A DNA stretch of 64,000 nt from an uncultured Pseudomonadota bacterium (GCA_963836235.1 CAWIIP010000004.1:256001-320000), one strand, 5' to 3'; shown: positions 2,050 through 59,950, counted from the first letter of the stretch. Translations and numbers: made by a program. Notes: a model not told the origin generated them from the sequence alone.

Positions 2050-2063
2050 ATGACAGGGATCAT
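2050..2063 (+). promoter_or_regulatory. Crp/Fnr-type box ATGA-N6-TCAT
   Basis: ATGACAGGGATCAT; -10 TAGGTT at 2086-2091. Confidence 0.8.
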
Positions 2064-2120
2064 GGCGGCCTTTTTCAAAGGGCGATAGGTTAAAGCCGTG
2101 AGATCCTAAAGGAGAGACCC

Positions 2121-2420
2121 ATGAAGCCAAGTCTAACGGGTAAAAAAACCGATTGGGTCCAAACGCTGAAACCGGGCGATGAAATCACCTTGGATATGAC
2201 GGCGCTGGTCGAAAATGGGCTTGAACCCATGTCGGCTGTTTTGGAGACGGTGGAGGACATGAGGCCTTGCCAATGCCTCCATGTGGTTTTCTGCCATGAA
2301 CCGCTTGTTCTTTGCAAGGCGTTGGAGGAAAGGGGTTTTGAACATTACGCCCAATGCAGGAAGGGTGTTTGGGACATCTACTTTAGGCAAAAGGATTGCC
2401 CCTGCCCCGGACACTTTTAA
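2121..2420 (+). CDS. DUF2249-like small protein (SirA/TusA-like fold)
   Basis: LD...GLEPM..VLE...HEP..L...LEERGF...W.IYF pattern. Confidence 0.7.
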   Translation: MKPSLTGKKTDWVQTLKPGDEITLDMTALVENGLEPMSAVLETVEDMRPCQCLHVVFCHEPLVLCKALEERGFEHYAQCRKGVWDIYFRQKDCPCPGHF

Positions 2421-2467
2421 TAAAAATGTTTTTGCCTTAAGTGAAGGTTTTTTTAAGGAGGTCAGTC

Positions 2468-2986
2468 ATGAAAAAGTTATTTTTTCTTTTGGCTTTAATT
2501 CTGGCGGTGGGACCCGTCTTGGCGGATGATTTGCATCCGGTGGCGCAGGACCAAGCCATCCAGCAATACCAAGATTTCTGGAAAACCGAGACGCCTGATC
2601 CGATGAATCATATCGTTTGGAAGCTTTATGTTTACCGGGCAATTCCGCCAGCCGCAAATCCCAAAAGCGCTTTGGAGTTCCTCGTTGGCGGATTGTCTCC
2701 CTACCACAATTATTATGTCCGGCTTAATATCAACCAATTGTACAACTTCCTGCATCCCCTTCCGCAAAGGGGGGATGTCATTGTGGTGAGCGGCCGAGTC
2801 CGCGACCACCGGGATTACCACGCGACTCTCCCGAAGAAGGAAGTGATTTTAAAGAGCCTTACCCTGGATTTGGACGACGCGAACGCCGTGCCTAACGAAC
2901 ATTTTGACCCTTCGGTGTGGCCCAGCCCCACGCCTGGGGCCGCCCCAGCAGTTTCACCCGCGGTCGGCAATCCAACCTCGCGTTGA
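2468..2986 (+). CDS. Secreted hypothetical protein
   Basis: AAGGAGG RBS; signal peptide MKKLFFLLALILAVGPVLA; Pro-rich tail. Confidence 0.7.
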   Translation: MKKLFFLLALILAVGPVLADDLHPVAQDQAIQQYQDFWKTETPDPMNHIVWKLYVYRAIPPAANPKSALEFLVGGLSPYHNYYVRLNINQLYNFLHPLPQRGDVIVVSGRVRDHRDYHATLPKKEVILKSLTLDLDDANAVPNEHFDPSVWPSPTPGAAPAVSPAVGNPTSR

Positions 2987-3086
2987 ATCTGTTATGGATC
3001 GTAAACGAAAATAAGACTTTTCTTTAGCATGAATCTTAAAAGGGGAGGCGTTCGCCTCCCCTAAAAATAAAACCATGGAGGAAGAA

Positions 3087-3212
3087 ATGAAAAAAGTTAA
3101 AGCGAGAGCTAAAAAAGTTTATAAAGCCTGCGCTGGATGCGGTGGAAAAATATTGAAAAGCAAGGGAATGATGTCGCGTGGCAAGTTTTATTGCTGTGCG
3201 GGTTGCAAATAA
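3087..3212 (+). CDS. 41-aa Cys-rich putative metal-binding peptide (CxxC...YCCxxC)
   Basis: GGAGG RBS; MKKVKARAKKVYKACAGCGGKILKSKGMMSRGKFYCCAGCK; not in the ORF track. Confidence 0.7.
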   Translation: MKKVKARAKKVYKACAGCGGKILKSKGMMSRGKFYCCAGCK

Positions 3213-3263
3213 CCTGCGAGTGAAATTTTGAGGGGAGAGGTCCCTTGGCCGAAGGAAGAGTTA

Positions 3264-4645: not shown

Positions 4646-5437
4646 TCAAGAAAGCAGCATTCCGCCGTCCACGACCACCAATGCGCCGGTCATGTAATTG
4701 GCGGCGCCGGAGGCCAGGAACAGCACCACTTTGGCGATGTCATCGGGAACCCCCATGCGCTTGAGGGGGATCCGGCTCATGAAACCGTCCATCATTTCCT
4801 TCATTTGGGCCGGCGTCATACCGCTTCCCGCCAGGGGTTGGGCGGTGCCTTCGGTGTTGATCCCGCCGGGCGCGATGGCGTTGACCAGGATGCCATGGGG
4901 GGCCACTTCCACCGCGAAGTTCTTGGTGAAACTCAGGACTCCGCCTTTGGAAGCGTCATAGGCCGCCAAGCCCACCATGGAAGGGTGGACGCTGTCGATC
5001 GAGGCGATGTTGATGATCCGGCCCCGGCTTTCCTGCTTCATCATTTGGAGCGCCGCTGCCTTGGACAGGAAGGCCATACCCCGAAGGTTGATGGCGTAAA
5101 CCTTGTCGAAGAGGGCGGAGTCCATTTTCAGCATCGGAACTTGGGGGTAAATACCAGCGTTGTTGACCAGAATATCCAGTTTCCCGAAATCACTCACGCA
5201 GGCCTTTACTGCCTTTTCCCAACTCTCGTCCTTGGATATATCCAGAGCCAGGGTCCGCACCTTTCCCTTTTTTAAGCGGTTTGGCACGTTCTCCAGGGCT
5301 TTTGGATTCACGTCAACCACCATCACTTCGGCACCCGCTTCCACCAACCGTTCGGTGATTCCGAATCCGATACCCAAGGCCCCGCCAGTGACAATGGCGG
5401 CTTTTCCTGTTATGTCAAAAGGATTTGTGTTTTCCAT
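4646..5437 (-). CDS. SDR-family NAD(P)-dependent oxidoreductase
   Basis: TGGALGIG, NNAG, YDASK catalytic motif. Confidence 0.95.
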   Translation of the reverse strand: MENTNPFDITGKAAIVTGGALGIGFGITERLVEAGAEVMVVDVNPKALENVPNRLKKGKVRTLALDISKDESWEKAVKACVSDFGKLDILVNNAGIYPQVPMLKMDSALFDKVYAINLRGMAFLSKAAALQMMKQESRGRIINIASIDSVHPSMVGLAAYDASKGGVLSFTKNFAVEVAPHGILVNAIAPGGINTEGTAQPLAGSGMTPAQMKEMMDGFMSRIPLKRMGVPDDIAKVVLFLASGAANYMTGALVVVDGGMLLS

Positions 5438-5503
5438 GACCGACCTCCAAACAATATGCTTTCAACTTATTTATTAGGATGCACCCAGAATAATTTTGCC
5501 GCT

Positions 5504-5517
5504 ATGACAGGGGTCAT
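5504..5517 (-). promoter_or_regulatory. Crp/Fnr-type box (SDR promoter)
   Basis: ATGACAGGGGTCAT; minus-strand -10 CATCCT at 5481-5476. Confidence 0.8.
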
Positions 5518-5552
5518 GTTGCGGACTACCGAATCCCGAACTTTGAAATTAT

Positions 5553-5566
5553 ATGAGCCCTGTCAT
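5553..5566 (+). promoter_or_regulatory. Crp/Fnr-type box (ric promoter)
   Basis: ATGAGCCCTGTCAT; -10 GATAAT at 5589-5594. Confidence 0.8.
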
Positions 5567-5642
5567 GCGTGAAATCTCAAGGAATAAAGATAATGATTAA
5601 TCAATAGGGGAAAGAGGGGCCTTGGGTTGAAGGAGGAGTGAA

Positions 5643-6377
5643 ATGAAAGTCGATCCAGCCCAGGCGGTGGGGCAAATCGCCGTCGAATTCAAGGAAGCCA
5701 TTCCTGTTTTCGAAAAATTCAACATCAATTATTATAGCGAAGGCAATAGGACTTTGCGGGAAGCCTGCTATATCGCGGGTGTGCCGATGGAGAACATCGC
5801 GGCGGCCTTGGAAGAAGTCCAGCACCGCCACCAGGAATGGTACAAGCAGGAACCGGACTGGTGGAATGAGTCCATGGCGGATTTGATCGTCTATATCGTG
5901 GGCGTCCACCACGTTTATACCCGTGGGCAACTGAACCGAATCGAGGAAATGCTGGATGCCCTGACGGCGAAGAAGGGCAAGTCGAACCCCGAGCTGATCG
6001 CCGTCCGGCGTCTTTTCCTGAAGATGGCCGAGGACTTGCGGGTCCACCTGTTGCGGGAGGAGGAAACGGTGTTCCCCTACTTGATCCAAGCCGAAAGGGC
6101 GGTACAGCGCAATGAGCCCATCCCCCGCCCCTTCACGGGTTACAACAGTTTTACCCATCCCATCCGCGCCCTGCTCTTTGAGCACGGTATGATGGACCGG
6201 GAATGGAGGGACATCGTGCAATTGACCCATCATTTCGAGCCGCCCGCCTCCCAGCGTAAAATGCTGCGCCCCCTCTATGAGGCCATGAAGGAACTGGAAA
6301 AGGACGACGAAAAGCACATCCACCTGGAAAATAATATCTTGCTCAAGAAGGCCACCCAAATGGGCCTGTTGGATTAG
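5643..6377 (+). CDS. ric: Iron-sulfur cluster repair di-iron protein (Ric/YtfE/ScdA family)
   Basis: ScdA-like N-domain, HH.Y.R, H...EE..FP, EH and HIHLENNIL di-iron motifs. Confidence 0.88.
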   Translation: MKVDPAQAVGQIAVEFKEAIPVFEKFNINYYSEGNRTLREACYIAGVPMENIAAALEEVQHRHQEWYKQEPDWWNESMADLIVYIVGVHHVYTRGQLNRIEEMLDALTAKKGKSNPELIAVRRLFLKMAEDLRVHLLREEETVFPYLIQAERAVQRNEPIPRPFTGYNSFTHPIRALLFEHGMMDREWRDIVQLTHHFEPPASQRKMLRPLYEAMKELEKDDEKHIHLENNILLKKATQMGLLD

Positions 6378-6562: not shown

Positions 6563-6817
6563 TCACTTAAACTTTTCTGCAAAGAGGTTATAAAGCCAGG
6601 CGAAGAGAACTCCGCCGATTCCCCCGTCCACCAGGGCGTAAACCAGACCGATCAGGCTTCCCATGGGGCTTATGTTGTAACCCCGGTAAATATGCCCAAT
6701 TCCAAAGAGGCCGTGGGTCGGCCCCTCAAAAAGAATGACCCACCAAGTCAGGAAGAAAAGCCCTACCCCCCATATTAAACTAAAAGTTAAACCGAATGCT
6801 TTGATGTTTAGCCTCAT
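6563..6817 (-). CDS. Small membrane protein (family often annotated 'bacteriophage holin')
   Basis: LNIKAFGL..WG...Y.GY..S..GSLIGLVYALVDG.IGG..FAWLYN. Confidence 0.65.
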   Translation of the reverse strand: MRLNIKAFGLTFSLIWGVGLFFLTWWVILFEGPTHGLFGIGHIYRGYNISPMGSLIGLVYALVDGGIGGVLFAWLYNLFAEKFK

Positions 6818-6903
6818 CGCATACTCCTTGAAACGAAAATTACGGACCCAGTTTGTTCCAACGGCTTCTCCGCTAAAGGTACTTTAATAATTACGAGGAG
6901 ATT

Positions 6904-6917
6904 ATGATCGCTGTCAC
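6904..6917 (+). promoter_or_regulatory. Crp/Fnr-type box (N-ATPase promoter)
   Basis: ATGATCGCTGTCAC (1 mismatch); -10 TATCCT at 6940-6945. Confidence 0.75.
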
Positions 6918-6955
6918 ATCCATGGCATGGCATGGGAATTATCCTGGGACGGTAG

Positions 6956-8744
<1,789 letters not shown>

Positions 8745-8748
<4 letters not shown>

Positions 8749-9032
8749 CGCCCCCCAAGGACGTGGAAAAACTCCAGACCCAAGTCCGCAAGGATGTTTC
8801 CCGGATCAAGGGGGCCGAAAAGAACCGGCCCACCTTGCTGGCCCAAACCGCCTACCTGGGAACCTTAGGGATCGTCATCGCCCTGCCCATCGTGGCGGGG
8901 GCCTATCTAGGACATTGGCTAGATGAGAAACTTTCCGGGTTTTCCTTCAGTTGGACGGTCTGCCTGATCGTCCTGGGGGTCTTTATCGGCGCGACCAACG
9001 CCTATTTCTTCATCCGGAGGGGGGAATCATGA
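8745..9032 (+). CDS. atpQ: N-ATPase AtpQ (AtpZ/AtpI-like) subunit
   Basis: LGTLG..IALP..AGAYLG.WLD; position in the DCQBEFAG order. Confidence 0.8.
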
Positions 9033-9724
9033 TGTCCACCGGCCTCTTTCAAGGTGTTCTCATTCATATTGGGGTTTTTCAAATCACCGGAAGCCTGGTG
9101 GTGACTTGGCTGATTATGGCCGTCCTCGCGGTGGCCGCTTGGGCCATGACCCGCCGGTTGAAGGACAGCCCCGGAAGCCTCCAGGCCGCCCTTGAGGCCG
9201 TGGTGACCTTGATCGAGGACGCGATCGAGGAGGTTTTGCCCGGCAAATCCAAGCTGGTTTTTCCCTTTGTGGCCACCTTGTGGATCTTCATCGGCCTGGC
9301 CAACCTGATCGGCCTGTTGCCGGGCTTCAGTTCCCCCACCGGCGACCTTTCGGTGACCGCAAGCCTCGCCTGCCTGGTTTTCCTCTCGGTCCATTGGTTC
9401 GGCATCCGGTCGGAGGGCTGGCTGGGGTACCTGAAACACTATACGAGCCCCAGCCCCGTCCTGATTCCCTTCGAGTTGATCAGCGAGTTTTCCAGGACCT
9501 TAGCCCTGGCGGTCAGGCTTTTCGGCAACGTGATGAGCCTGCAGATGGCGGCGGCCTTGGTGCTGATGGTGGCGGGGTTCCTGGTTCCCATACCGCTCTT
9601 AATGCTTCACATCATCGAGGCTGTGATTCAAGCATACCTCTTCGGGATGCTTGCCTTGATTTACATCGCCGGGGGTATTCAATCGCAGGAACTCCGGCAT
9701 CAAAAAGAAGGAGGAAAATCATGA
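9029..9724 (+). CDS. atpB: Fo subunit a
   Basis: SRTLALAVRLFGN with conserved Arg; IQAYLF. Confidence 0.95.
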   Translation: MMSTGLFQGVLIHIGVFQITGSLVVTWLIMAVLAVAAWAMTRRLKDSPGSLQAALEAVVTLIEDAIEEVLPGKSKLVFPFVATLWIFIGLANLIGLLPGFSSPTGDLSVTASLACLVFLSVHWFGIRSEGWLGYLKHYTSPSPVLIPFELISEFSRTLALAVRLFGNVMSLQMAAALVLMVAGFLVPIPLLMLHIIEAVIQAYLFGMLALIYIAGGIQSQELRHQKEGGKS

Positions 9725-9990
9725 ATGGAATGACATGGGTTGTCGTCGTCTCAACGGTGGTGGCGGGGTTTGGAATCGCCCTGGGGGCGATGTTTCCGGC
9801 CCTGGCCATGGGAAAAGCCATCAGCCAGGCGCTGGACGCCCTCTCAAGGCAGCCGGAAGCGGAAAAGTCGATCACCCGAACTTTGTTCGTGGGATTGGCC
9901 ATGATCGAGTCGCTGACCATCTATTGCCTGGTGGTGGTGCTCATCATCCTTTTCCGCAACCCCCTGCTCCAGTACCTGCTGAAGCCGTAG
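9721..9990 (+). CDS. atpE: Fo subunit c
   Basis: RQPEA loop, LAMIESLTIY. Confidence 0.95.
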   Translation: MNGMTWVVVVSTVVAGFGIALGAMFPALAMGKAISQALDALSRQPEAEKSITRTLFVGLAMIESLTIYCLVVVLIILFRNPLLQYLLKP

Positions 9991-10007
9991 GAAAAGCGAG
10001 GCCCTTC

Positions 10008-10754
10008 ATGGAATTTAATTGGACGACCTTTCTCTTGGAAACGGTCAATTTCCTGGTCCTGGTTTGGATCCTGGAGCGGTTTTTTTACGCCCCGGTGAAG
10101 CGCATCATCGCCGAAAGGCGGGGCGCGATCGAGAAAAAAATCGAGGACGCCGAAAAAACCCGGACCGACGCCGATGAACTGCGCTTGAAGTACGAAAACC
10201 GCCTGAAGGACTGGGAACAGGAAAAGGCCCGTCAAAGGGAAGACTTCCAAAAGGTAATGGATGAGGAGAAGAACCGGCAAATGAAACTGTTGAAGGATTC
10301 CCTTGGAAAGGAAAAAGAAAGGGTGGAAGCCAGGGAACAAAAGCGACTTTCCGAAATTCTGGAAAAAAATGAAAGGGAAGCCGTCCGGCAGTCCTTGAAA
10401 TTCCTCTCCCGCATTTTGGAGGCTTTGGCGTGCCCGGAAATCGAGTTAAAAATGATCGAGTTCACCCTGAGAGCCATTTCCGATAAGGACTCCAAGGAAG
10501 CCGGGTTGATTCGTTCGGGTTTCGCAGGCACCGGAACCGAAGTGGCGGTCAAATCCGCTTTTGTTTTGAACGAGGATTGGAGGAACCGGCTGGCGCAAGC
10601 CTTGAAGGCGGCCTTGGGGAGGGAAGTGAAAGTGCTTTTCGCGACGGCGCCGGAGCTTCTCGCCGGGCTCGAAGTGACTTGCGGTTCGGTGGTTTTACAG
10701 GCCAACCTGCGGGACGAATTGCGGGCTTTCGAGGGGGAGAGCGGCCATGAATGA
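10008..10754 (+). CDS. atpF: Fo subunit b with delta-like C-terminal extension
   Basis: [25 protein letters not shown], coiled coil, PELLAGLE tail. Confidence 0.9.
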
Positions 10755-12225
10755 CCTTGCCACGTCACCCTTATCCCGCCGTTCGGAGTGGATCGAAAGG
10801 TACCGTTTCGCGCCCAGGGCCAGGGAGGTCGGAAAGGTGGTTTCGGTGGGGGACGGCATCGTTTGGATCGAAGGGCTTCCCTCGGCGGCCATTGACGAGG
10901 TGCTGGACTTGGAAACCGGCGGTCATGGTCTGGTATTCCACCTGACTGAAAAACTGGTGGGGGCTATCCTGTTCAAACAAACCGAGAATCTTACGGCTGG
11001 GACGGGGGCCCGGCACGCGGCCCAGCGGCTGAAAATCCCGGTCGGGGACGCCCTTTTGGGGCGGGTGATCGATCCTTTGGGGATGCCCTTGGACGGGAAG
11101 GCTCCTCCCCTCTGTGAAGACGAAAATGAGATCGACGTCGCGTCGCCCCCCATCACCGCGAGGGATTTCGTGAACCGGCCTCTCCTGACGGGAAACAAGA
11201 TCATCGACGCCCTCATTCCCATCGGGAAGGGCCAACGCCAGCTTTTGATCGGCGACAACGGCTTGGGAAAAAGCTCCCTCGCCATTGATGCCGTGGCCAA
11301 CCAGAAGGGCAAGAACGTCTTGTGCGTTTACGTGCTGACCGGCCAAAAGCGCTCCAGCATCTTGAATACGATCCAAATGCTCAAGGACGCGGGAGCCTTG
11401 GACAACACGGTGCTGGTCGTCGGCGAAGCCACCGCCCTCCCGGGACTGCAATATATCGCGCCCTTCGCCGGATGCGCGGTGGCCGAATATTGGATGAGGC
11501 GGGGACGCGATACCTTGATCGTTTACGACGACTTGACGGCCCATGCCGACAGCTACCGGGAACTCTCCCTCCTTTTGCGAAGGCCGCCGGGGCGGGAGGC
11601 CTATCCCGCCGATATTTTTTTCCTGCATTCGAGGCTCTTGGAGCGGTCCACCTGCCTGTCCCCGGAATTAGGCGGGGGGAGCATGACCGCCCTGCCCATC
11701 ATCGAAACCAAGGAAGGGGAAATGGCTTCTTATATTCCCACCAACCTGGTTTCCATCACGGACGGCCAGATTTATTTTGACGCTGCCCTTTTTTCAGCCG
11801 GATTTTTGCCGGCCATTGACGTCACCAAGTCCGTTTCCCGGGTGGGCGGGGCGGCCCAGCCGAATGAAATCAAACTGGAAGCCGGGCGCATGAAGCTGGA
11901 TTACCTTCAATTCCTGGAACTGGAGGTTTTCACCCGTTTTGGCGCCAAGCTGGAGGCGGGTATGCAGAAAAAAATTAACCGGGGCCGCGTGCTGAGGGAA
12001 ATCCTCAAGCAAAGCCGCCTTACCCCGGTTTCGGTGGAATGCCAGATGGGCTGGCTTGTGGCATTCAACAACGGATTGTTGGATGGTGTCAGCCCGGAGG
12101 AAATCGGGGTTCAACTGGACCGTTTATTCCAATGGGTCGGCTCCCGGGAGTTGAAGCTTTCCGACTCCCGCGAAAGGTGGAGCGAGGTCCTGGCGGGTTG
12201 GAGAGGGGAAAAGGCGCCGCCATGA
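10747..12225 (+). CDS. atpA: F1 alpha subunit
   Basis: [20 protein letters not shown]. Confidence 0.97.
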
Positions 12226-13043
12226 GCAAACTTTCCGATCTCAAGGCCCAGCTCCATACCTTGGGGGAAATCAATAGCATCTTGAACGCGATGAAAAACC
12301 TTTCCATCGTGGAAATGACCAAAATTTCACGCCTCTTGGCTACCCAAAGGAAGGTGGCGGAAAGCATCCAGGAAGCCTTGGCGGATTTTGAGTCTTTTTA
12401 CGGAACATTAGGGTCAAACCCGCCTGGGGAAGGGTTGCTTTGCGTCCTGATCGGGTCCGAGCGGGGTTTTTGCGGCGGGTTCAATGAGAAGATCGCGGCC
12501 CATTTGGAAAAGGTGGGAGCCGGTTATCTGGCCGTGCGGATTTTGACGGTGGGCCGGAAACTCGCGCTGAAGTTTGAGGGGGACCCCCGGCTGGCGGGGA
12601 CGATGGAGGGGCCCAGCGCCGCTGAGGAAATTCCCGCGACCATCTCCACCCTTTGCGACCGGTTGAAGGACTTCCCCGGCTTCCGTTGGATGATCATTCA
12701 TAATGACGGGGGTGAGGCCAATCTGAAGACCCTGGAAACCTGTCCTTTGGAAGTCAGGGGCCAGGAACCCAAGGCCCTCTTTCCTTTTCCGCCGCTTTTG
12801 AACCTGCCTTCAAATGAACTGTACCCTTTATTGCTGGAACAGCACCTTTTCGCGGTGCTCTACAGCCTCTTTTACCTTTCTTTCATGGTCGAAAACCGGG
12901 AAAGGCTTCGCCACATGGAAGGCGCGCTGGGGAAAATCGAGAAGGATTGGAATCGGATGAAATTGCGGGCGAACGCCCTCAGGCAGGAAGGCATCACCGA
13001 GGAGTTGGAGATTATCCTCTTGAGCGCGGGAGACGGGCGGTGA
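12222..13043 (+). CDS. atpG: F1 gamma subunit
   Basis: [22 protein letters not shown]. Confidence 0.93.
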
Positions 13044-13088
13044 GTTTGTTTTCAAGGCGGTATTTTTAAGAACTCTTTTCATAAATCT

Positions 13089-13102
13089 ATGATGAGAGTC
13101 AT
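13089..13102 (+). promoter_or_regulatory. Crp/Fnr-type box (macB promoter)
   Basis: ATGATGAGAGTCAT; -10 TAGACT at 13125-13130. Confidence 0.8.
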
Positions 13103-13146
13103 AAGGTTCTTTGTTCTGTCCTCTTAGACTTAATTTTAGGAGGGCG

Positions 13147-15120: not shown

Positions 15121-15180
15121 GCTCGAGGCAAGAGCCGACTGGTGATTTAATCGCGGATTTTAAAAACCAATTTTTTGAAT

Positions 15181-15194
15181 GTGATTCCCATCAT
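15181..15194. promoter_or_regulatory. Crp/Fnr-type box upstream of the candidate ncRNA
   Basis: GTGATTCCCATCAT (1 mismatch); TATCAA at the expected -10 position (imperfect). Confidence 0.55.
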
Positions 15195-15228
15195 AGTTCT
15201 ATTTCCGGTACTGTTGTATCAATAGAAC

Positions 15229-15640
15229 TGTAGAAGGTGTTCCAAGGTGAGGCACCCCTTGGGTGCGGCGGGGACTGAGGTCCCAAACCGAAAAGGAGCA
15301 CCGCCGTCGAAAGCTGGTGGAACTGGTAAGGGTTCCGGTTTTAAGCGCCTTATAGGCCGCTGCGGGGACTGAGGTCCCAAACCGTGAAGGAACCCGGCCT
15401 GGCGAAGCCGGTGAGATCCGCGGGATTTGGATGTCAACGGTTATGGCTTCTTGGTTGAGGTCCTGAAGCTGGGACTTTACGAAGTATTTTTTGGAGGTAT
15501 GTCGGAACAATCGTCGGAAAGGTTCACGGGTTGCGTTTCAATGACGCGGGGCAAAGGCCCAAAACTAACAAAGAACCTTGCTGAAGATGTCGCTGATGGT
15601 GGTTGAAGCCCCGGGGTACAGGGTCCCGGGGCTTTTTTAT
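15229..15640 (+). ncRNA. Candidate structured non-coding RNA of unknown family
   Basis: No convincing ORF; 23-nt repeat containing hairpin GGGAC-TGAG-GTCCC at 15268-15290 and 15362-15384, each in a closing helix; ends in an intrinsic terminator; 5' end inferred. Confidence 0.45.
15606..15640 (+). terminator. Intrinsic terminator
   Basis: AAGCCCCGGG-loop-CCCGGGGCTT followed by a T run. Confidence 0.85.
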
Positions 15641-15684
15641 TTATGGGCAACGACTCCAGGGTTCTTGCCTATAAAACCTCGAAT

Positions 15685-15698
15685 GTGACCCCGGTCAT
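15685..15698 (+). promoter_or_regulatory. Crp/Fnr-type box (PRTase promoter)
   Basis: GTGACCCCGGTCAT; -10 GAAAAT at 15721-15726. Confidence 0.7.
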
Positions 15699-15785
15699 GT
15701 CCCATGTGGAAGATGAGAGAGAAAATTACATAGAGAAGTGAGAAAGAATTTATATTTCACGGGCTTTTTGGATTGAGAGGGAGCC

Positions 15786-17207: not shown

Positions 17208-18332
17208 TCAATTATTCACCGATTCCCTGGCCGCGAGGATTTCAGCGGGAACATAAGAACAAAAGGGGTCGGCGCCCATCACATCCCCGGTCAAGGCGTA
17301 GGCCCTGGCTCTGGAGCCGCCGCAAAGGCGGCGGTATTCACATCTTCCGCATTTGCCATTGAGGGAGTCCGTGTCCCGCAGTTTTTGAAAGAGGGGGCTT
17401 TCCCGGTAAATCTCGTTCAGGGGCTGGTCCTTCACGTTGCCGGCGGAAAGGGGCAGGAAACCGCTGGGGCAAACATCCCCCTTGTGGGAAATAAAAACGA
17501 ACCCCCGGCCATCACCCACCCCACGGGCGGTCCTCAAGAGAACCGGATCGGGTTGAAACTTCAGGGCTTCGGGAAGCTCCCGGGGCGTTATTCCATAATT
17601 CTGGAGGATCACCCTGCGAAAATGGTGGGCCTCGGTGGTTTTGATGTCGAACCAATTCATCTTCAAGATGTCATAAAGTTGGTTCAACACCTTTTCGGTT
17701 TCCTTGGCGTTCAAGGCTTGGCTTTTTTGCGCGCGGCCCGTTGGGACCAAGAAAAAAACAGACCATAGGGCGATGGAGAAGGGAACGATGGCCCTCGAGA
17801 TATCCCAAACCTGGCCCTGGTTGTGACGGCTAATGGTGGTGTTGATTTGAAGCTGGATGCCCAGTTCCCGGATTTGGCGGGAGGCTTCCAAAAACCGGTC
17901 AAAAGTCCCGGGGACGCCCCGGAAAGCGTCAAAGGTGGCGGCGTCGGCTCCATCCAGGGAAAGGGAAATGCGGCTCAAGCCCGCGTCCCGTAATTCCTTG
18001 AGACGGTCATAAGTTAAAAGCGGAGTGATGGAGGGGGCCAAGGCGAAGTTCATCCCGCGTTTAGCGCATTCCTTGACCAGCCGGGTCAAGTCCGGCCGTT
18101 TTAAGGGGTCCCCGCCGGTCATGACGAAAAGGGGGACACCCCAGTCGGCCAACTGGCGGATCAAATCGAGGGCCTGCTTGGTATCGAGTTCACCGGGATA
18201 GATTTGGGATTGGGCTTCGGCCCGACAATGCACGCAGGCCAAATCGCAGGCCCTCGTCGCTTCCCAAATGGCGATATAGGGGCGGTCGGCGTAACGGGCG
18301 GAAGGTTTTTGTAAGGTGGAGGATTTTTCCAT
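17208..18332 (-). CDS. Radical SAM/SPASM protein, AhbD/NirJ-like (heme biosynthesis-associated, TIGR04053-like)
   Basis: WEATRACDLACVHCRA; SPASM GKCGRCEYRRLCGGSRARAYA...DPFC. Confidence 0.85.
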   Translation of the reverse strand: MEKSSTLQKPSARYADRPYIAIWEATRACDLACVHCRAEAQSQIYPGELDTKQALDLIRQLADWGVPLFVMTGGDPLKRPDLTRLVKECAKRGMNFALAPSITPLLTYDRLKELRDAGLSRISLSLDGADAATFDAFRGVPGTFDRFLEASRQIRELGIQLQINTTISRHNQGQVWDISRAIVPFSIALWSVFFLVPTGRAQKSQALNAKETEKVLNQLYDILKMNWFDIKTTEAHHFRRVILQNYGITPRELPEALKFQPDPVLLRTARGVGDGRGFVFISHKGDVCPSGFLPLSAGNVKDQPLNEIYRESPLFQKLRDTDSLNGKCGRCEYRRLCGGSRARAYALTGDVMGADPFCSYVPAEILAARESVNN

Positions 18333-18403
18333 TTTGAGCTCCTATGTGTTGAAGGGTTATCAACAGGTTTCAATTAATTTAAGGGACTAAAGGAGCCGCC
18401 AGT

Positions 18404-18417
18404 ATGATGCCCGTCAT
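18404..18417 (-). promoter_or_regulatory. Crp/Fnr-type box (radical SAM promoter)
   Basis: ATGATGCCCGTCAT; minus-strand -10 TAAATT at 18381-18376. Confidence 0.8.
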
Positions 18418-18478
18418 AATCCGAGTTCCGAAGCGGTGTTGAGATGATCATGGAATGTAAATAAAAAGGCGGGAAAAC

Positions 18479-19414
18479 ATGCGAAAAAGTAAGGGCGATT
18501 CGTGGGTTCCGTCCGATGTTTTACGGGAAGTTCGGGGCGTCCTCCTCCTTGTCTTGGGCCTTAACCTGACGATTTGCGTCGGCAAGTTGATAGTAGGTTG
18601 GTCCGTGGCCTCCCTTTCTATGGTGGCCGATGGTTTTCATTCCCTGATGGATGCCATGGCCAATGGGTTGGGTTTGGCCAGCGTATGGATCGCCGCAAAA
18701 CCCGCCGACAAAGACCACCCTTATGGTCATCAAAAGTTTGAGGTTTTGGCGGCCCTGGGAACGGCGGTTTTGATGGGGGTGGCCTGCGTTGAGATTTTGG
18801 CGGACGCCTTGAGGCATCTTGGAACAGCTGCGGCCTTGCCCCACCCTAGTCCGCTTTCTTTTTTCGTTATGGGAGGAACGATGGTCATCAATGGCTGGAT
18901 CTCCTGGTACGAGTCCCGGAAGGGCCAGAAACTCCAAAGCCCCCTTCTGGCGGCAGATAGCGCCCACAACGGAAGCGACTTGCTTTCATCGGCTTCGGTC
19001 TTGGCCGCTTTGGCGGGAGCAAAACTGGGTTGGGGTTGGGCCGATTTGGGAGCGGCTGTCCTAGTGGTGGCAGTGGTAGGGAGGGCTGCTTGGGGAATAT
19101 TAAACCAGGCCCAGCAGGTTTTGGCCGACCACATCATGGTGGACCCCGCTCGGGTTATTCGGGCCGTCAAGGCCGTACGGGGAATCCTTTCCTGCAACAA
19201 GGTGAGGAGCCGTGGAATGCCGGGAAATGTTTTCGTGGATCTGCATGTCCAGGTATCGCCCCGATTAACCACCTTGAAGGCCCACGGCCTCACCCATCAG
19301 GCGATGGAAGCGGTCAAAAGGGCCGTTCCGGGAGTTAAAGAGGTTTTCGTCCATACCGAACCTCCCGAACTGCCTTCGAAATTAAGGAAATCCGCGGGGA
19401 TACCTCATCTATGA
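18479..19414 (+). CDS. Cation diffusion facilitator (FieF-like) transporter
   Basis: ADGFHSLMD, PADKDHPYGH.KFE, FVDLHV, VFVHTEP. Confidence 0.92.
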   Translation: MRKSKGDSWVPSDVLREVRGVLLLVLGLNLTICVGKLIVGWSVASLSMVADGFHSLMDAMANGLGLASVWIAAKPADKDHPYGHQKFEVLAALGTAVLMGVACVEILADALRHLGTAAALPHPSPLSFFVMGGTMVINGWISWYESRKGQKLQSPLLAADSAHNGSDLLSSASVLAALAGAKLGWGWADLGAAVLVVAVVGRAAWGILNQAQQVLADHIMVDPARVIRAVKAVRGILSCNKVRSRGMPGNVFVDLHVQVSPRLTTLKAHGLTHQAMEAVKRAVPGVKEVFVHTEPPELPSKLRKSAGIPHL

Positions 19415-19424
19415 TTCGCGTCAT
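19411..19424 (+). promoter_or_regulatory. Crp/Fnr-type box (nitronate monooxygenase promoter)
   Basis: ATGATTCGCGTCAT. Confidence 0.7.
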
Positions 19425-19534
19425 AAAGGGTTTAACGGGAATGACTGTTTAATGGGTCTTTGTTTAGGCATGGTATTTTTTGAAGGACGGCTTCCAAATG
19501 CGCATGTTCTTTTTTGAATTTCAAAGGAGTTTTA

Positions 19535-20985: not shown

Positions 20986-21015
20986 GTGTTTTCGGCTTCT
21001 CCCGCAGACCCCTAT

Positions 21016-21493
21016 CGGCCAGCCGGGAGGTACGATACTCGAAATACCTCAAATTCCCTTATTTGAATTGTTAGCGTCGCTAACAATTACCCCCCCTATT
21101 CTTCCAATTTCCACCCTGTCCTCCGGCTTAGGCCAAATTCCCTTATTTTAATTGTCCGAGTGTCGGACAATTAAAACCCTAGCTCCGGGGTTTAAGAGGG
21201 GAGGGAACCCCGCTACCCGGGTTACCTCACCTCAGAGCGGCCAGCCGGGAGGCTCAATCCCCGTAATACCGAAAATTCCCTTATTTTGAGAATTGCAAAT
21301 TGCAAGAACTGCCACCCCTATCCTTCCAATAAATGGCAACCAGACTTTAAAAAGTTCCCGCGGGGAACTTTTGGCTCCCGAAAGTTCCAATTTCTTATTC
21401 CGGTGGAACATAGCTACCCAGCCACCCTATCCTCACCCGTCTATCGGACACTATCGGACAACGTGGCCGATAGTGTCCGATACTGTCCGATAG
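21016..21493. repeat. Degenerate repeat/palindrome cluster
   Basis: AAATTCCCTTATTT at 21051, 21135, 21273; CGGCCAGCCGGGAGG at 21016, 21238; CTATCGGACA x2 and inverse copies at 21441-21493. Confidence 0.75.
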
Positions 21494-22269
21494 AAATGCC
21501 CCCTTTTTAAGGGTTTCATAAAGGCCATAATTCTAACGACCATAATTGCCGTGACTCGGATAGGATTATGGCCGTTATGGGAATGATTTGGCCGATAGAC
21601 GGACAGGGCTTGGCCCCTGTGCCGAAACCACCAGTTGAGGCACTAGCTTTGGGTGCGCCAGGCCATAGGTAAAAAAGGCACGGTGCTGTTCCGGTTGAGA
21701 ATGCGAGGGCTTTGTCTGACACTCCGTAGGCCAAGGCATTCTGTATAGCCCCCAAAGGGGATAGAATCAGATCGTTTCAAGAGGGCTTGGAACGAAATGG
21801 AAAATGGAAGCCAGGCACCTTTTTTTTACAACATGCAACGATTTACGTACTTAATGGGACGAACGCGTCCAGAGGCAGTGAACGCATAGATTTCAAGGAC
21901 TTTGGGGGCCAAGGAAAGGTTCTGGGAATAGCCAAGGGGAGATTCCGGGCCATAAATTTCCACGAATTCCCTTGGTGGAGTGTTGCAAACTGGTTTGAGG
22001 TGACCGTAAAGCCTTCAAAAAGGAATTTTTAGAGGTGCCCTTAATAGATAATTTTAAAAAAAAGATAAGAGATGCGTTGCATAAAGGCGAATAAAAAAGC
22101 TCTGCTCCTTTCTGGAGTCAAGGGGGCCAGACATATAGATTGTACTTTAGAAATTGCCCTCTCCCCCATGCGGTCCGATCTCGTTTTTCTTAGTTATTCT
22201 GGGCGTGTCATCTTGTTCATTCGGTAGGATAATCATCCAATTTTGAATCATCTTTAAAGCGATCTATAT

Positions 22270-23656: not shown

Positions 23657-23732
23657 AAAATTCCACAAGGGTAAAAAAAGTTATAAAATGCTTTTCCGGC
23701 GGTTTGCCAAAACACTTCGCGTGATGTACTCC

Positions 23733-23814
23733 ATGAGGATGGCGTACAGAATTTACTTATATTGGAAGTACTTCTTTGAGTTTTTCCCCGAAAACAACCC
23801 TGGGGTATACCGGA
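23733..23814 (+). repeat. 82-bp copy of the 5' end of the ParB-domain gene (repeat of 24817-24898)
   Basis: ATGAGGATGGCGTAC...GAGTTTTTCCCCGAAAACAA...GGGGTATACCGGA nearly identical at both sites. Confidence 0.9.
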
Positions 23815-23818
23815 TTAG

Positions 23819-24094: not shown

Positions 24095-24155
24095 CTTGTC
24101 CACCCCTTTTCAGGTAACGTTGTAAGGCCTTTCGGCTTGGAATGATGGTGATGAG
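24084..24155 (-). pseudogene. C-terminal remnant of a BrnT-like toxin
   Basis: LITIIPSRKALQRYL... overlapping the antitoxin start; N-terminus missing. Confidence 0.6.
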
Positions 24156-38231: not shown

Positions 38232-38295
38232 GGAAGTCTCCTTATTTCGATTGAACTCGTCCCCGGAAAGATATCTTTTAGGCCTCTTTTCCCGT

Positions 38296-38309
38296 ATGAC
38301 GGCCGTCAT
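38296..38309 (-). promoter_or_regulatory. Crp/Fnr-type box (cyt c-Rieske-cyt b operon)
   Basis: Perfect palindrome TATGACGGCCGTCATA; -10 TATCTT at 38273-38268. Confidence 0.85.
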
Positions 38310-38344
38310 ATAAGTTGTTCTTTCAAACAACCGCATTCCTTAGG

Positions 38345-38359
38345 GCAAGCGGCATGCCA
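38345..38359 (-). promoter_or_regulatory. sigma54 promoter
   Basis: TGGCATGCCGCTTGC, identical to 33985-33999. Confidence 0.85.
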
Positions 38360-38418
38360 TTGGAAAAGCCTCTCAAAAAGCGGGTTTTCGAAACCATCGA
38401 ATTGGATAAGGCGGGAGT

Positions 38419-40306: not shown

Positions 40307-40342
40307 AAATTCCTTGTATGACGAAGGTCATACAAGGAATTT
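40307..40342 (-). promoter_or_regulatory. Crp/Fnr-type box embedded in a perfect 16-bp inverted repeat
   Basis: AAATTCCTTGTATGAC-GAAG-GTCATACAAGGAATTT; core box 40318-40331; -10 TAACCT at 40295-40290. Confidence 0.8.
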
Positions 40343-41412: not shown

Positions 41413-41461
41413 GAGCCCTCCTAGGAGGGCTCACTCTAAAAGAAGGGTTCTCCTTCCCACT

Positions 41462-41530
41462 ATGATTCGGCTCACAAAACCCGCTATTTCCAGGCTTTCT
41501 TTGTCGTGAGCCTTCTATGAGCTGGATCAT
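41462..41530. promoter_or_regulatory. Two Crp/Fnr-type boxes for divergent promoters
   Basis: ATGATTCGGCTCAC (41462-41475) and ATGAGCTGGATCAT (41517-41530; -10 TATACT at 41553-41558). Confidence 0.8.
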
Positions 41531-41590
41531 ATTGGGCCCGAGAGGCTCTTTTTATACTAATCAAACTTCCCGTCCTATTAAGGAGATTTT

Positions 41591-46424: not shown

Positions 46425-46485
46425 GATTTTTCCTTATTTTATTTATTCAGCAGTTTAATGATAATTTCGTCCTTCTTTGGCTGGT

Positions 46486-46499
46486 ATGACCGCCCTCAT
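46486..46499 (-). promoter_or_regulatory. Crp/Fnr-type box (hemerythrin-GGDEF promoter)
   Basis: ATGACCGCCCTCAT; -10 TATCAT at 46463-46458. Confidence 0.8.
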
Positions 46500-46648
46500 A
46501 AAAAGGTTTTTGGATTGTTTAAAAATCTAAACATGTCGAGCCGGAAAATTGGATAAAAGAATCATTGTTTTGAGGGGGAAATAAACGATTTGTCTAACCC
46601 AATACCAAAGATAGAGAAACTTAGGACGGGTTGTTTTTAAGAGGGAGG

Positions 46649-56750: not shown

Positions 56751-56832
56751 TGTGTCTCCTCTTTTGTAATTAATGGTACCGAAAATTTTTTATCGACACT
56801 GCGCATCATGCCGACGATCTCAAAATTTATTT

Positions 56833-56846
56833 ATGAGCTAAGTCAT
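56833..56846 (-). promoter_or_regulatory. Crp/Fnr-type box (yceI operon)
   Basis: ATGAGCTAAGTCAT; -10 CATGAT at 56810-56805. Confidence 0.8.
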
Positions 56847-56892
56847 ATAAAAAATTTATTTCGCTTGTTCTCCGTCGGCATTAAATTGAAAA

Positions 56893-56984: not shown

Positions 56985-57046
56985 GCGTTCACGCCATAAT
57001 GACTTGCGGTTGGATAAAAAAGTCTGTCCCCATAAAAATAATTTAT

Positions 57047-57060
57047 ATGATCTGCGTCAT
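57047..57060. promoter_or_regulatory. Crp/Fnr-type box, target unclear
   Basis: TATGATCTGCGTCATA. Confidence 0.65.
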
Positions 57061-57311
57061 AGATTCCGGTCTGAAAAAGCGAAAATTGAATCGGAATGCA
57101 CTTAGAAGTAAACCTCCGTCGGGCAATATGGAAAGTCCTTGGGTTATGTGCGGATAAATTATTTGGCGCTTTCGATTTCCCGGGGGAGGCCACCCGCCAC
57201 CAATCAATCAAGGTTTGTCATGCGAAAACCCGACTTGGTTCGTCCATTTTCCACAACCGATTTTTCATAATGAAGTCAAAACAACATGATGAAGAAAGAA
57301 AACAAGACAAT

Positions 57312-57325
57312 ATGATCTCCGTCAT
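57312..57325 (+). promoter_or_regulatory. Crp/Fnr-type box upstream of the sensor kinase
   Basis: GACAATATGA-TCTCCG-TCATATTGTC extended palindrome. Confidence 0.75.
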
Positions 57326-57391
57326 ATTGTCGCTCTGCTTTTGTAGGATCATATTCCTGGACGATATTCACAATTCAAGTGGAGGAAGTCT

Positions 57392-58771
57392 GTGCCGCCA
57401 TTTTGGGGAGAAGGAATTTACGCTAAAAAAGGCGGCTGGTTCATCGGATTGAGATGGATGGCTATCGCCGGTGGATTGTTGATCCTGCTAATCGCCCCCT
57501 TTTTGGTTCCTTTGAATATTAGATATGAAAGGCTTGTGGCTGTTCTCCTTTTTGGGGGAGTGTTGAATGGACTTTATCTTTGGTACTGGAATCGCTTAAA
57601 GCAAAGGGGCTTTCTCCAAACGGAATGGACTAAAAAGGCGGAATGGTTCCTCCATATTCAAATGGGTGGGGATCTTTTAGCCCTCACCTTGCTCCTTTTT
57701 TTCAGTGGTGGTTCCAACAATCCCCTCGTTTTTTTCTTTCTTTTTCACCTCGCTATTGGCGCCATTCTTTTCGACCGCAAGCAGAGCTTGCCTTATGCCC
57801 TGGCCGCTCTTGCCATCCCCTGGATGCTTTATTGGGTAGAACCCTTGACCAATCCAACACAGAATCTTTGGAAAGGACTCGGGGAAATACAACCTGAGCA
57901 CCAAAAGGCAATTCTTTTAGCCTATTCCCTGACCGTGGCTGGCCTTTGGTTTTTCCTGGCTAACTTGGCTGAGGACCTTCGGGAAAAGGAACGGAACCTA
58001 TGGGAGACGGGGGAAAAGCTGCATTTGGCCAATGAGGAACTAAAAGAACTGGATGTTTTTAAAAACCGCTTCCTCAAACAAGTGGTAATGCAGGTTAAGG
58101 ATCCCTTAATGGAAGTGGGGTTGGAATTGGGAAAAGTAGAGAAATCTTTGACTCATCCCGATGATCCTTCTTTAAAAGCGTTGGATACGGCCAAAAAGCA
58201 AATTTGGGCGCTTTTGCAGCTGATCGAGGATTTGGTTTGGATTTCCAGGACCCGGGCCCAGGACAGTTCCTTCAAAAGGAATTGGGTGGATGTTTACGAA
58301 ACGTTAAGGAAATGCATTCAGTCGAAAGAAGCCGAGGTAGAAGCAAAAGGAATTCATTTCCAACTTCACGGTGAGCCTCAAGTCCGATTAAGGGCCGATC
58401 AGGAATCTTTTCAGAAAGTCGCGGATAATTTGATCGCCAACGCTGTCCAATATACTCCGGAAGGTTGGGGGGATATTCTCGTGGAGTTTAAGATGGAGGG
58501 GGACTGGATGGAGTTTGCCGTGGAAGACCAAGGCATAGGCATTTCTCCCAAAAACCAGAAAAATTTATTCCAAGAGTTCTATCGTGGCTCCAACGCCAAG
58601 CGACAGGAGAAATTTGGAACGGGTTTAGGACTTTCCATCGTCAAATCGATAATCGACTTGCACGGGGGAAAGATTCAGGTGCGTAGCGAACCCAAGAAGG
58701 GAACCAGGGTGGATACCTGGTGGCCTCATGTTCATGAAGAGCCCAGTCCGGAACCGATCAAGATTACTTAG
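57392..58771 (+). CDS. Membrane sensor histidine kinase-like protein lacking the phospho-acceptor His
   Basis: Multiple TMs; intact N, G1, F, G2 boxes (NLIANAVQY, DQGIGI, LFQEF, GTGLGL); H-box reads VVMQVKDPL. Confidence 0.85.
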   Translation: MPPFWGEGIYAKKGGWFIGLRWMAIAGGLLILLIAPFLVPLNIRYERLVAVLLFGGVLNGLYLWYWNRLKQRGFLQTEWTKKAEWFLHIQMGGDLLALTLLLFFSGGSNNPLVFFFLFHLAIGAILFDRKQSLPYALAALAIPWMLYWVEPLTNPTQNLWKGLGEIQPEHQKAILLAYSLTVAGLWFFLANLAEDLREKERNLWETGEKLHLANEELKELDVFKNRFLKQVVMQVKDPLMEVGLELGKVEKSLTHPDDPSLKALDTAKKQIWALLQLIEDLVWISRTRAQDSSFKRNWVDVYETLRKCIQSKEAEVEAKGIHFQLHGEPQVRLRADQESFQKVADNLIANAVQYTPEGWGDILVEFKMEGDWMEFAVEDQGIGISPKNQKNLFQEFYRGSNAKRQEKFGTGLGLSIVKSIIDLHGGKIQVRSEPKKGTRVDTWWPHVHEEPSPEPIKIT

Positions 58772-58788
58772 ATTTATTAAAAAATATT

Positions 58789-59793
58789 CTAGTCTTCTAT
58801 TTTTAAAACGGCGGCCCCTTCTAAACGTCCGGCACGGAGGTCCGCAAGGGCTTCATTGGCCATTTCCAAGGGATAAACCCTAACATGGGTTTCGACGGGA
58901 ATTTGAGGAGCCAGATTCAGGAATTCCTCTCCGTCCTGACGGGTCAAATTGGCGACCGATCGGATTTGCCGCTCGCCCCACAAGATGGAATAAGGGAAAG
59001 AGGGAATCTCACTCATGTGAATTCCGGCGCAGACAACCACTCCTCCCTTGGCAACCGACCTTAGGGCCATGGGAACCAATTCTCCGATGGGGGCGAAAAT
59101 AATTGCGGCATCCAAAGGTTCGGGTGGGGTATCACCCGATGCCCCTACCCAATCCGCTCCCAGCTTTTTCGCGAAGGCCTGGCTTCCGAAATCGCCTTGA
59201 CGGGTGAAGACGTAAACATCACGATTCTGATGTTTCGCGACCTGAATCAAAAGATGGGCCGCCGCTCCGAAGCCATAAAATCCCAGCCGCTTTCCTTCAC
59301 CCGCCATCCGTAAGGACCGATAACCAATCAAACCGGCACAGAGCAGGGGCGCCGCCTGTATGTTGGGATAGCTTTTGGGAATAGGAAAAGAAAAACGCTC
59401 ATCCGCTAGGCAGTACTCCGCAAAGCCACCATCCAATTGATAACCAGTGTAACGGGCGAGGTCACACAAGTTTTCATGGCCGCTTCTGCAGTAATCGCAG
59501 GTACCACAGCAGCCGCCCAACCAAGGAATTCCCACCCGATCCTTAACCTTAATCGTTTTTACCCCCGGGCCTAATGCCTCCACCACGCCCACCACCTGAT
59601 GGCCGGGAACCAAGGGCAATTTAGGCTCTTTAAGGTCTCCATCTACCACATGAAGATCGGTACGGCACACCCCGCAGGCCTTAACCCGGACAAGGACTTG
59701 GCCGGTCATGGGGATGGGTTTGGGAATGGTAGCCGCTTTTAAGGGCATTCCTTGGGATTTCAGTACCATAGCTTTTATGACATTTTGATCCAT
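58789..59793 (-). CDS. Zinc-dependent alcohol dehydrogenase-family protein
   Basis: CGVCRTDLH, PGHQVVG, C..C..C...ENLC, GFYGFGAAAH. Confidence 0.95.
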   Translation of the reverse strand: MDQNVIKAMVLKSQGMPLKAATIPKPIPMTGQVLVRVKACGVCRTDLHVVDGDLKEPKLPLVPGHQVVGVVEALGPGVKTIKVKDRVGIPWLGGCCGTCDYCRSGHENLCDLARYTGYQLDGGFAEYCLADERFSFPIPKSYPNIQAAPLLCAGLIGYRSLRMAGEGKRLGFYGFGAAAHLLIQVAKHQNRDVYVFTRQGDFGSQAFAKKLGADWVGASGDTPPEPLDAAIIFAPIGELVPMALRSVAKGGVVVCAGIHMSEIPSFPYSILWGERQIRSVANLTRQDGEEFLNLAPQIPVETHVRVYPLEMANEALADLRAGRLEGAAVLKIED

Positions 59794-59936
59794 GAAATTA
59801 TTTTAACAGCGACAAGCCGTTCTTTTGTAATGAAGGAGTTCTTGAATATTTCCTTTATGGTTTTATCGGGTCTTTTTGTCGATTGGAACAGCCGAAGACG
59901 CAATTGGGGGCATTGTCCGGTTCTTTTTAGCCTTCT

Positions 59937-59950
59937 ATGACGGGGGTCAT
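59937..59950 (+). promoter_or_regulatory. Crp/Fnr-type box upstream of crp paralogue 2
   Basis: TATGACGGGGGTCATA; -10 TAATTT at 59973-59978. Confidence 0.8.

Follow-up and report, generated by a model that had tools for sequence, protein, structure and literature searches.

We analysed a stretch of 64,000 nucleotides (the window; GCA_963836235.1 CAWIIP010000004.1:256001-320000, i.e. contig C4:256001-320000) from an uncultured organism that is presumably a soil FCPU426 bacterium, a placement made because the nearest homologues come from candidate division FCPU426. The window carries genes for two Crp/Fnr-type proteins, one near each end, and between them recurs a palindromic box, TATGA-N6-TCATA. 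We report that this box is enriched, intergenic, placed at a fixed distance from candidate -10 hexamers, conserved, and found together with a particular recognition helix, xETxIR, in genomes of several phyla. Taken as a whole, the data make it very probable that the box is the operator of the xETxIR Crp/Fnr clade, controlling a class II low-oxygen/nitrosative-stress regulon with a changed DNA code.

Features of the window (-10 hexamers are predicted)

791-1489, plus strand: Crp/Fnr paralogue 1 (P0001), helix VETSIR, Cys-rich pocket; no box within 400 bp upstream
2049-2064, plus strand: box, -10 TAGGTT toward a DUF2249 gene (2121-2420)
5503-5518, minus strand: box, -10 CATCCT toward an SDR oxidoreductase gene (4646-5437)
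5552-5567, plus strand: box, -10 GATAAT toward a RIC/ScdA-like iron-sulfur repair gene (5643-6377)
6903-6918, no strand assigned: bidirectional box, TATCCT toward an alternate F1Fo (N-ATPase-type) operon (6977-13043) and TACCTT toward a holin_4-like gene (6563-6817)
13088-13103, plus strand: perfect box, -10 TAGACT toward a MacB-type ABC transporter
15180-15195, plus strand: box, weak -10 TATCAA, preceding a candidate non-coding RNA
15229-15645, plus strand: candidate structured non-coding RNA of about 415 nt, with repeated hairpin domains and its own terminator
15684-15699, plus strand: box with two mismatches, -10 GAAAAT toward two phosphoribosyltransferase genes
18403-18418, minus strand: perfect box, -10 TAAATT toward a TIGR04053 radical SAM gene (AhbD-like, 17208-18332); a cation efflux gene is divergent
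19410-19425, plus strand: perfect box before a nitronate monooxygenase-like gene; hexamer absent at 29.5 bp
32774-33830 (ends approximate), minus strand: IS30-like element, inserted right after the start of the first gene of the operon in the next line
33912-33958, minus strand: two weak boxes (33912, 33943), -10 TATTGT toward a cupredoxin/ferritin/4Fe-4S/CoxB-like operon whose first gene is interrupted by the insertion sequence
34774-34789, no strand assigned: box between luxR-family and hlyIII-family genes, no hexamer at 29.5 bp; possibly represses
38295-38310, minus strand: perfect box, -10 TATCTT toward a cytochrome c/Rieske/cytochrome b/cytochrome bc operon
40317-40332, minus strand: perfect box, -10 TAACCT toward a porin-like CxxCH protein (named by eye) and cytochrome c
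41461-41531, no strand assigned: two boxes (41461, 41516) between a fatty acid desaturase gene and a CoxIV/AurF-like operon; -10 TATACT on the plus side
46485-46500, minus strand: perfect box, -10 TATCAT toward hemerythrin and GGDEF genes
56832-56847, minus strand: perfect box, -10 CATGAT toward a YceI-like gene
57046-57061, no strand assigned: perfect box, more than 300 bp from either gene start
57311-57326, plus strand: perfect box before a sensor kinase gene (57392-58771); hexamer elsewhere than at 29.5 bp
59936-59951, plus strand: perfect box, -10 TAATTT toward paralogue 2 (putative autoregulation); a Zn-alcohol dehydrogenase gene is divergent
60000-60695, plus strand: Crp/Fnr paralogue 2 (P0002), helix VETCIR, conserved C83/C94/C95/C104; putative autoregulatory box upstream
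63533-63712, plus strand: integrase C-terminal remnant and attachment-site (att) side repeat, right end of the island, before tRNA-Tyr (63840-63927)

Motif counts and placement

The exact core ATGA-N6-TCAT occurs 16 times in the window against 0.79 expected, with a maximum of 3 across 100 shuffles, and the enrichment predicted when the motif was first described is thereby borne out. With at most one mismatch to TATGA-N6-TCATA there are 18 boxes (0.48 expected), 11 of them perfect. All 18 lie in intergenic DNA, which makes up 14% of the window, in agreement with the initial annotation; sites with two mismatches are mostly genic (21 of 26, the other 5 being intergenic). The 21 sites of the initial annotation all exist and are within one mismatch of the 8-bp core, but measured against the 10-bp consensus those at 15685 and 33913 have two mismatches and that at 33944 has three. 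One further exact core match, at 28532, was outside that list; it sits within a gene and is probably due to chance.

Between 21 and 27 kb no TGA-N6-TCA core was found, as had been stated, and the same had been claimed for the TetR efflux operon, where a weak site at 53719 (one mismatch to the 8-bp core, three to the 10-bp consensus) does lie just upstream of tetR. The patch at 21000-27000 has a lower GC content (0.43-0.46 across 21-25 kb), carries a ParB-domain gene and is probably a later insertion.

The least probable of the alternatives that we considered treats the box as no more than a degenerate CRP or FNR site of the usual kind, in surroundings biased toward AT. It could draw on the TGTGA half-sites at 6903, 15180, 15684 and 41461, and on an ATGA half-site in one FixK2 site given in the available text of PMC9104804, but it is contradicted by the genome-wide counts of perfect matches: 3 for the CRP consensus and 9 for the FNR consensus versus 20 for the TATGA box. 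Moreover, when only the core is fixed at the FCPU426 loci described below, A leads position 5 (90 versus 24, 12 and 12 for the other bases). The motif is very probably neither of the two, as first proposed.

Promoter geometry

A -10 element occupies positions -12 to -7. Of 29 box-to-gene orientations, 16 have a NANNNT hexamer starting exactly 29.5 bp from the centre of the box (background 7.0%; binomial 1e-11) and 11 have a TANNNT there (background 1.3%; binomial 4e-14); 15 other offsets give 0-6 and 0-2, respectively, in the same orientations. Counted by box, the NANNNT hexamer is present at 15 of the 20 boxes having a gene start within 350 bp, close to the 14 cases reported initially. Given where the -10 element lies, this spacing puts the box centre at -41.5, the class II position. 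As judged from sequence, a palindromic TGA-N6-TCA centred at -41.5 of a predicted sigma70-type start is found both in the window and at independent loci.

Candidate regulators and the recognition helix

The helices VETSIR (791-1489) and VETCIR (60000-60695) are both present, as originally read. Pfam PF00027 and PF13545 score above cut-off in both proteins and a fold search agrees, which assigns them to the Crp/Fnr superfamily. Seven Crp-type helix-turn-helix (HTH) matches were found in the genome, four of which share VETxIR; since two of these are in the window and two on contig C1, there is more than one candidate for the acting regulator. Residues V192, E193, I196 and R197 are invariant among 39 aligned homologues. 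The best matches among 1.84 billion representatives are dominated by xETxIR helices, suggesting that the branch is large, and an ESM Atlas search returned only generic Crp/Fnr clusters.

In FNR the helix is Val-Glu-x-x-x-Arg, as in the local proteins, with Val at the position of CRP residue 180 and Ser at 212. The FixK2 helix is LETVSR, with Leu at the CRP-180 position and Ser four positions on (PDB sequence). FixK2 reads TTGA (available text of PMC9104804), and the accessible part of PMC1274295 reports a correlation between position 180 and the G in CRP sites. The initial annotation had attributed a changed specificity to Val at CRP R180 as well as to Ile at FNR S212; because both Leu (FixK2) and Val (FNR) at position 180 go with T at the fifth base, Val at this position does not account for the change, and it is probably the Ile at FNR S212, rather than Val180, that makes the difference.

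Co-occurrence of helix and box across genomes

Homologous loci were taken as the best 80 of 321 stretches, and a quick tree was used solely to group orthologues. Within the P0002 clade, a box with no more than one mismatch lies in the 450 bp upstream of 14 of 15 orthologues, the remaining one showing two-mismatch sites; for the other FCPU426 paralogue loci an upstream box is present in only 3 of 20. The 35 FCPU426 loci together hold 91 boxes, versus 3-8 for other spacers, and TANNNT is found at 29.5 bp on 44 of 182 sides versus 0-9 at other offsets. Across 22 FCPU426 genomes with the regulator there are 257 perfect boxes, versus 8 for the control.

The strongest test is provided by 41 loci from Nitrospirota, Nitrospinota, Zixibacteria and others, as these lie outside the FCPU426 lineage; they were fetched solely by the helix or one other conserved peptide, and the proteins are 31-39% identical. 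These loci hold 34 boxes versus 6-13 for other spacers, with TANNNT at 29.5 bp on 26 of 68 sides versus 0-8 at other offsets, and the boxes are mostly in divergent pairs facing DUF1858 and COX1-like small genes beside the regulator. All 18 such genomes that were checked carry 6-17 perfect boxes each (194 in total versus 52 for the control). Among 121 Nitrospirota genomes (the phylum of G044), the median box count is 10 (3.48/Mb) for the 51 with GTT[VI]ETxIR and 2 (1.19/Mb) for the 70 lacking it, the control motif being equal in the two groups (0.70 versus 0.69/Mb); the p value of the helix contrast, 1.7e-10, is overstated, like p-values of this kind in general, because the genomes are related. 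The Crp/Fnr-type class II regulon with altered specificity that was predicted from the window is in this way supported, at the level of sequence, across independent genomes and phyla.

A recurrent Nitrospirota cassette (L059, L068, L075, L078-L080, L083, L085, L088 and L090-L092) consists of a VETSIR Crp/Fnr gene adjoining divergent DUF1858 and COX1-like small genes, with one predicted class II box each.

A number of observations weigh against an operator read by this clade. In the window, 5 of the 20 boxes lack the hexamer at 29.5 bp, including the perfect boxes at 19410 and 57311, and box 15180 offers only TATCAA as a -10. The regulator-bearing genomes G007, G005 and G011 have only 1, 3 and 3 perfect boxes; in a wider sample of the FCPU426 phylum the contrast is weak (1-5 versus 0-4 boxes), and a VETCIR clade of Nitrospirota has few boxes by its own gene. 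Among helix-negative Nitrospirota genomes, 8 of 70 have an excess of at least 5 boxes; five were inspected, of which two encode a variant helix and three none. Conversely, three of five inspected box-poor genomes encode TETAIR, TETVIR or LETTIR proteins and have sites of the CATGA or TATGA type close by, so the helix is not always accompanied by perfect boxes. Finally, Nitrospirota members lack the cysteines described in the next section, which indicates that the signal may differ by lineage.

The box-rich genomes with no such Crp are among the points that could favour an unrelated reader, i.e. a local LuxR, response regulator or Rrf2 protein, with the Crp/Fnr genes as mere members of the regulon. 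The window also holds a boxed LuxR-family gene and two-component genes, and in the available text of PMC5748679 a Thermus TTGAC-N4-GTCAT site overlapping the DnrT footprint is assigned to NsrR. We consider this very improbable, however, as the TGA-N6-TCA core and the -41.5 centring are Crp/Fnr-family hallmarks, and the box tracks the helix across phyla despite different neighbouring genes.

Predicted fold and the cysteine-lined pocket

For the regulator a CRP fold was predicted (pLDDT, i.e. predicted local distance difference test, 83.8), and the fold search concurs. The dimer model scored 0.52 versus 0.00 for the best control, which probably mirrors the likeness to solved Crp dimers; of 30 solved pairs, 20 pass the mark set for this score, as does 1 of 23 single chains (the runs agreed to 86% or more, and pLDDT was no lower than 79). 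The iron-sulfur (Fe-S) cluster placed in the dimer model is unscored and the model is silent on the cofactor.

Four cysteines, C83, C94, C95 and C104, are present in 121 of 121 close homologues among the matches listed (120 of 203). C94, C95 and C104 align on the cyclic AMP (cAMP) cassette of GlxR (G-E..R-T-S), and in the dimer model they would contact the C-helix of the partner. Thr and Tyr stand in place of the cassette's Glu and Arg, and cAMP binding is accordingly unlikely. The FixK2 pocket has no such Cys cluster. Our best guess, at about even odds, is that the pocket cysteines hold an Fe-S cluster or a metal as a redox or metal sensor.

The cysteines are missing from the C1 paralogues as well as from the Nitrospirota members, and this bears on a rival reading in which the same clade binds the box but the effective regulator is a Cys-less C1 paralogue, or a mix of the four, and the signal is nitric oxide (NO) sensed through heme, as in DNR or HcpR, rather than oxygen through Fe-S. 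Two of the four VETxIR paralogues lack the Cys cluster; the Nitrospirota homologues without cysteines have a YPA/FPA motif and face DUF1858 and COX1-like small genes; and RIC and hemerythrin are among the targets. We nevertheless regard it as unlikely. The putative autoregulatory box is conserved chiefly at the Cys-rich P0002 clade, and many targets (ppsA and the alcohol dehydrogenase, phosphoribosyltransferase and ATPase genes) look hypoxic, not NO-specific. Furthermore, CooA-type heme binding requires loss of CRP residues 72-82, according to the accessible text of PMC12937710; here that segment aligns without gaps to GlxR, which disfavours such a heme.

A second cluster, at C1:395-426 kb, contains the two Cys-less VETCIR paralogues together with boxes; by eye its genes resemble glycogen phosphorylase, a sigma54 activator, FtsH, alcohol dehydrogenase and nitroreductase.

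Targets and a candidate non-coding RNA

Predicted targets in the window comprise RIC/ScdA-like repair, DUF2249, hemerythrin, TIGR04053 AhbD-like radical SAM, the alternate F1Fo ATPase operon, Rieske/cytochrome b/c genes, the cupredoxin-CoxB-like operon, CoxIV/AurF, desaturase, phosphoribosyltransferases, SDR, YceI, MacB and a holin_4-like gene; an alcohol dehydrogenase and a ppsA-like gene (named by eye) lie to the left of the window. Many of these recur at other FCPU426 loci (39 of 81 candidates scanned), where DUF1858 is also among the targets. Since this content overlaps the FixK2 regulon and resembles the lxa locus (see below), the regulon would, as far as gene content can tell, answer low oxygen or NO.

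Box 15180 faces no open reading frame, and between about 15229 and a terminator at 15645 the DNA downstream of it is conserved. It is kept in five other genomes of four genera (G001, G004, G010, G018 and G021) and on a metagenome contig (L137); a second metagenome match looks identical to G004. In six sequences, 15 of 94 predicted pairs show two-sided changes, and the folding z is -2.5. A recognisable box stands at constant spacing before the RNA in 4 of 6 genomes and on the new contig. The Rfam search gave no family for 15229-15645, with only terminator-level matches below cut-off. We consider this segment a candidate non-coding RNA under control of the regulon.

The GGGAC-N4-GTCCC repeat of the RNA recalls the DosR box, a reading that was rejected: the genome has only 5 such sites, and the flanking stems covary.

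The F1Fo operon (6977-13043) is complete, has N-ATPase-type gene order and a predicted class II box, and its c subunit reads ESLxxY. Two unannotated porin-like proteins (27020-28420 and 38985-40241), read by eye, have an N-terminal CxxCH heme motif and belong to operons that are putatively box-controlled.

The integrated element and the rest of the genome

An intact tRNA-Thr(TGT) gene is located at C4:131762, and copies of its 3' end lie at 197.2 and 245.9 kb, with an integrase preceding each copy. At 63533-63712 of the window (C4 319.5-319.7 kb), just before tRNA-Tyr and tRNA-Gly, are a remnant of an integrase (50 residues, 58% identical) and a repeat of 121 bp. The tRNA insertion, att repeats and integrase of a genomic island are thus all found, with the integrase decayed and the right att degenerate. 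These repeats and the remnant suggest a tandem array of integrated elements, in which the most distal member, now decayed, would be the box-rich stretch (C4 246.0-319.7 kb).

Over the genome there are 20 perfect boxes, versus 0-6 for nine other spacers, and 13 of the 20 are inside the island. Near-perfect boxes number 72; 20 are in the island, 15 of these with the 29.5-bp hexamer, and 17 of the 52 outside it also carry the hexamer, versus about 7 by chance as estimated from the window background. By eye, from N-terminal sequences, genes at the outside boxes resemble a second RIC, desaturase, alcohol dehydrogenase, nitroreductase, rhodanese and BON proteins. The initial description of an island-wide regulon therefore stands as regards concentration in the att-bounded island, but not as regards confinement: given the hexamers elsewhere, the regulon is island-concentrated and not island-limited.

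The three tandem elements (C4:131762-319750, about 188 kb) split a tRNA-Thr(TGT)-Tyr-Gly-Thr-tuf cluster, with VirB4-like, excisionase and integrase genes (identified by eye) in the middle element.

Comparison with known systems and proposed mechanism

FixK2 of Bradyrhizobium diazoefficiens (PDB 4i2o) is the best PDB match of the HTH segment and shares the TGA-N6-TCA core. It differs in having the box TTGA-N6-TCAA, Ser where P0002 has Ile, and an identity of about 23% in structural alignment; the ExxSR helix and TTGA-N6-TCAA box of FixK are not found here, and the FixK model gives 47 bits against a cut-off of 300. Its microoxic targets, as given in the available text of PMC9104804, overlap in ppsA, nitroreductase, a holin-family protein and cytochrome c. 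FNR of E. coli and A. fischeri is alike in fold, -41.5 geometry and probable oxygen response, and unlike in its box (TTGAT-N4-ATCAA) and its N-terminal Cys triad: the local proteins have ExxIR rather than ExxSR and no N-terminal Cys, their cysteines sitting instead in the cyclic nucleotide monophosphate (cNMP) cassette, and the Fnr model gives 43 bits versus 228. CRP and GlxR share the fold, the N6 spacer and class II geometry, and are the best overall PDB sequence matches, but R180 is Val here (no RExxR), the cassette Glu/Arg is Thr/Tyr, and A replaces G in the box (NCBIfam CRP 59 bits, cut-off 266).

Among regulons, the lxa locus of Burkholderia cenocepacia is, in the accessible text of PMC3721108, a cluster of about 50 low-oxygen genes with TGA-N6-TCA at 17 intergenic points and at outlying loci. 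It is similar in its clustering and in its alcohol dehydrogenase, nitroreductase and cytochrome c genes; it differs in having an FNR/ANR-like motif, in being rich in universal stress proteins and in not being a predicted island, whereas the present stretch is att-bounded with an integrase remnant. The NO regulators HcpR, DNR and NnrR, as far as the available part of PMC1274295 covers them, resemble our system in helix-motif co-evolution at 180/181 and in RIC/dnrN-type targets, and are unlike it in their consensi (TGTGA-N6-TCACA, TTGAC-N4-GTCAA, GTAAC-N4-GTTAC and TTGAT-N4-ATCAA). Nowhere in the main text of PMC1274295 or PMC3590769 does the string 'ATGA' occur, and the accessible text on PgRsp gave no binding consensus. 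Literature searches of titles, abstracts and main texts found no description of the motif among the matches listed (a prior description elsewhere, for instance in supplements or RegPrecise, is possible), and no regulatory study of FCPU426 was found among the matches listed.

Our data suggest a system that is expected to work like FixK2 and FNR at class II promoters, through a Crp/Fnr member that falls outside the definitions of CRP, FNR, FixK and CooA. TATGA(C)-N4-(G)TCATA would be the operator for the clade with the xET-x-IR helix; bound as a dimer centred at -41.5, the protein would activate class II promoters of the sigma70 type, its own gene's among them. In the helix, Glu and Arg may read the TGA core common to the family, and Ile at FNR-S212 together with a hydrophobic residue at CRP-180 would turn the fifth base, G in CRP sites and T in those of FNR and FixK, into A. 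The regulon would be a low-oxygen/nitrosative-stress module of the kind seen with FixK2 or lxa, collected in an old integrated element and also spread chromosome-wide. In FCPU426, four cysteines would replace the cAMP pocket and, in this scheme, probably hold a metal or Fe-S cluster that acts as the sensor.

At the promoter the mechanism is a textbook one, and what departs from the familiar case is the DNA code. It offers a predictive helix-to-box rule for an unstudied Crp/Fnr branch, by which low-oxygen/NO regulons could be read from genomes of uncultured phyla (FCPU426, Nitrospirota, Nitrospinota and Zixibacteria); the Cys-lined pocket, for its part, offers a concrete candidate new sensor. 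A wider proposal, which we find conceivable though somewhat doubtful, is that xETxIR marks a large multi-phylum branch with a third code (Ile to A, beside Arg to G and Ser to T), that its FCPU426 members carry an Fe-S/metal site for O2 or NO in the cNMP pocket at the dimer interface, a third architecture beside those of E. coli and Bacillus FNR, and that it controls a new structured non-coding RNA.

Other observations in the window

The IS30-like element at 32774-33830 has 4 further copies in the genome, 99.9% identical. Promoter flanks (33940-34005 and 38310-38360) are duplicated between the cupredoxin and cytochrome c operons, as are stretches coding for signal peptides (32700-32770 and 38130-38200). 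The cytochrome c genes at 37827 and 38542 are near-identical in their mature parts.

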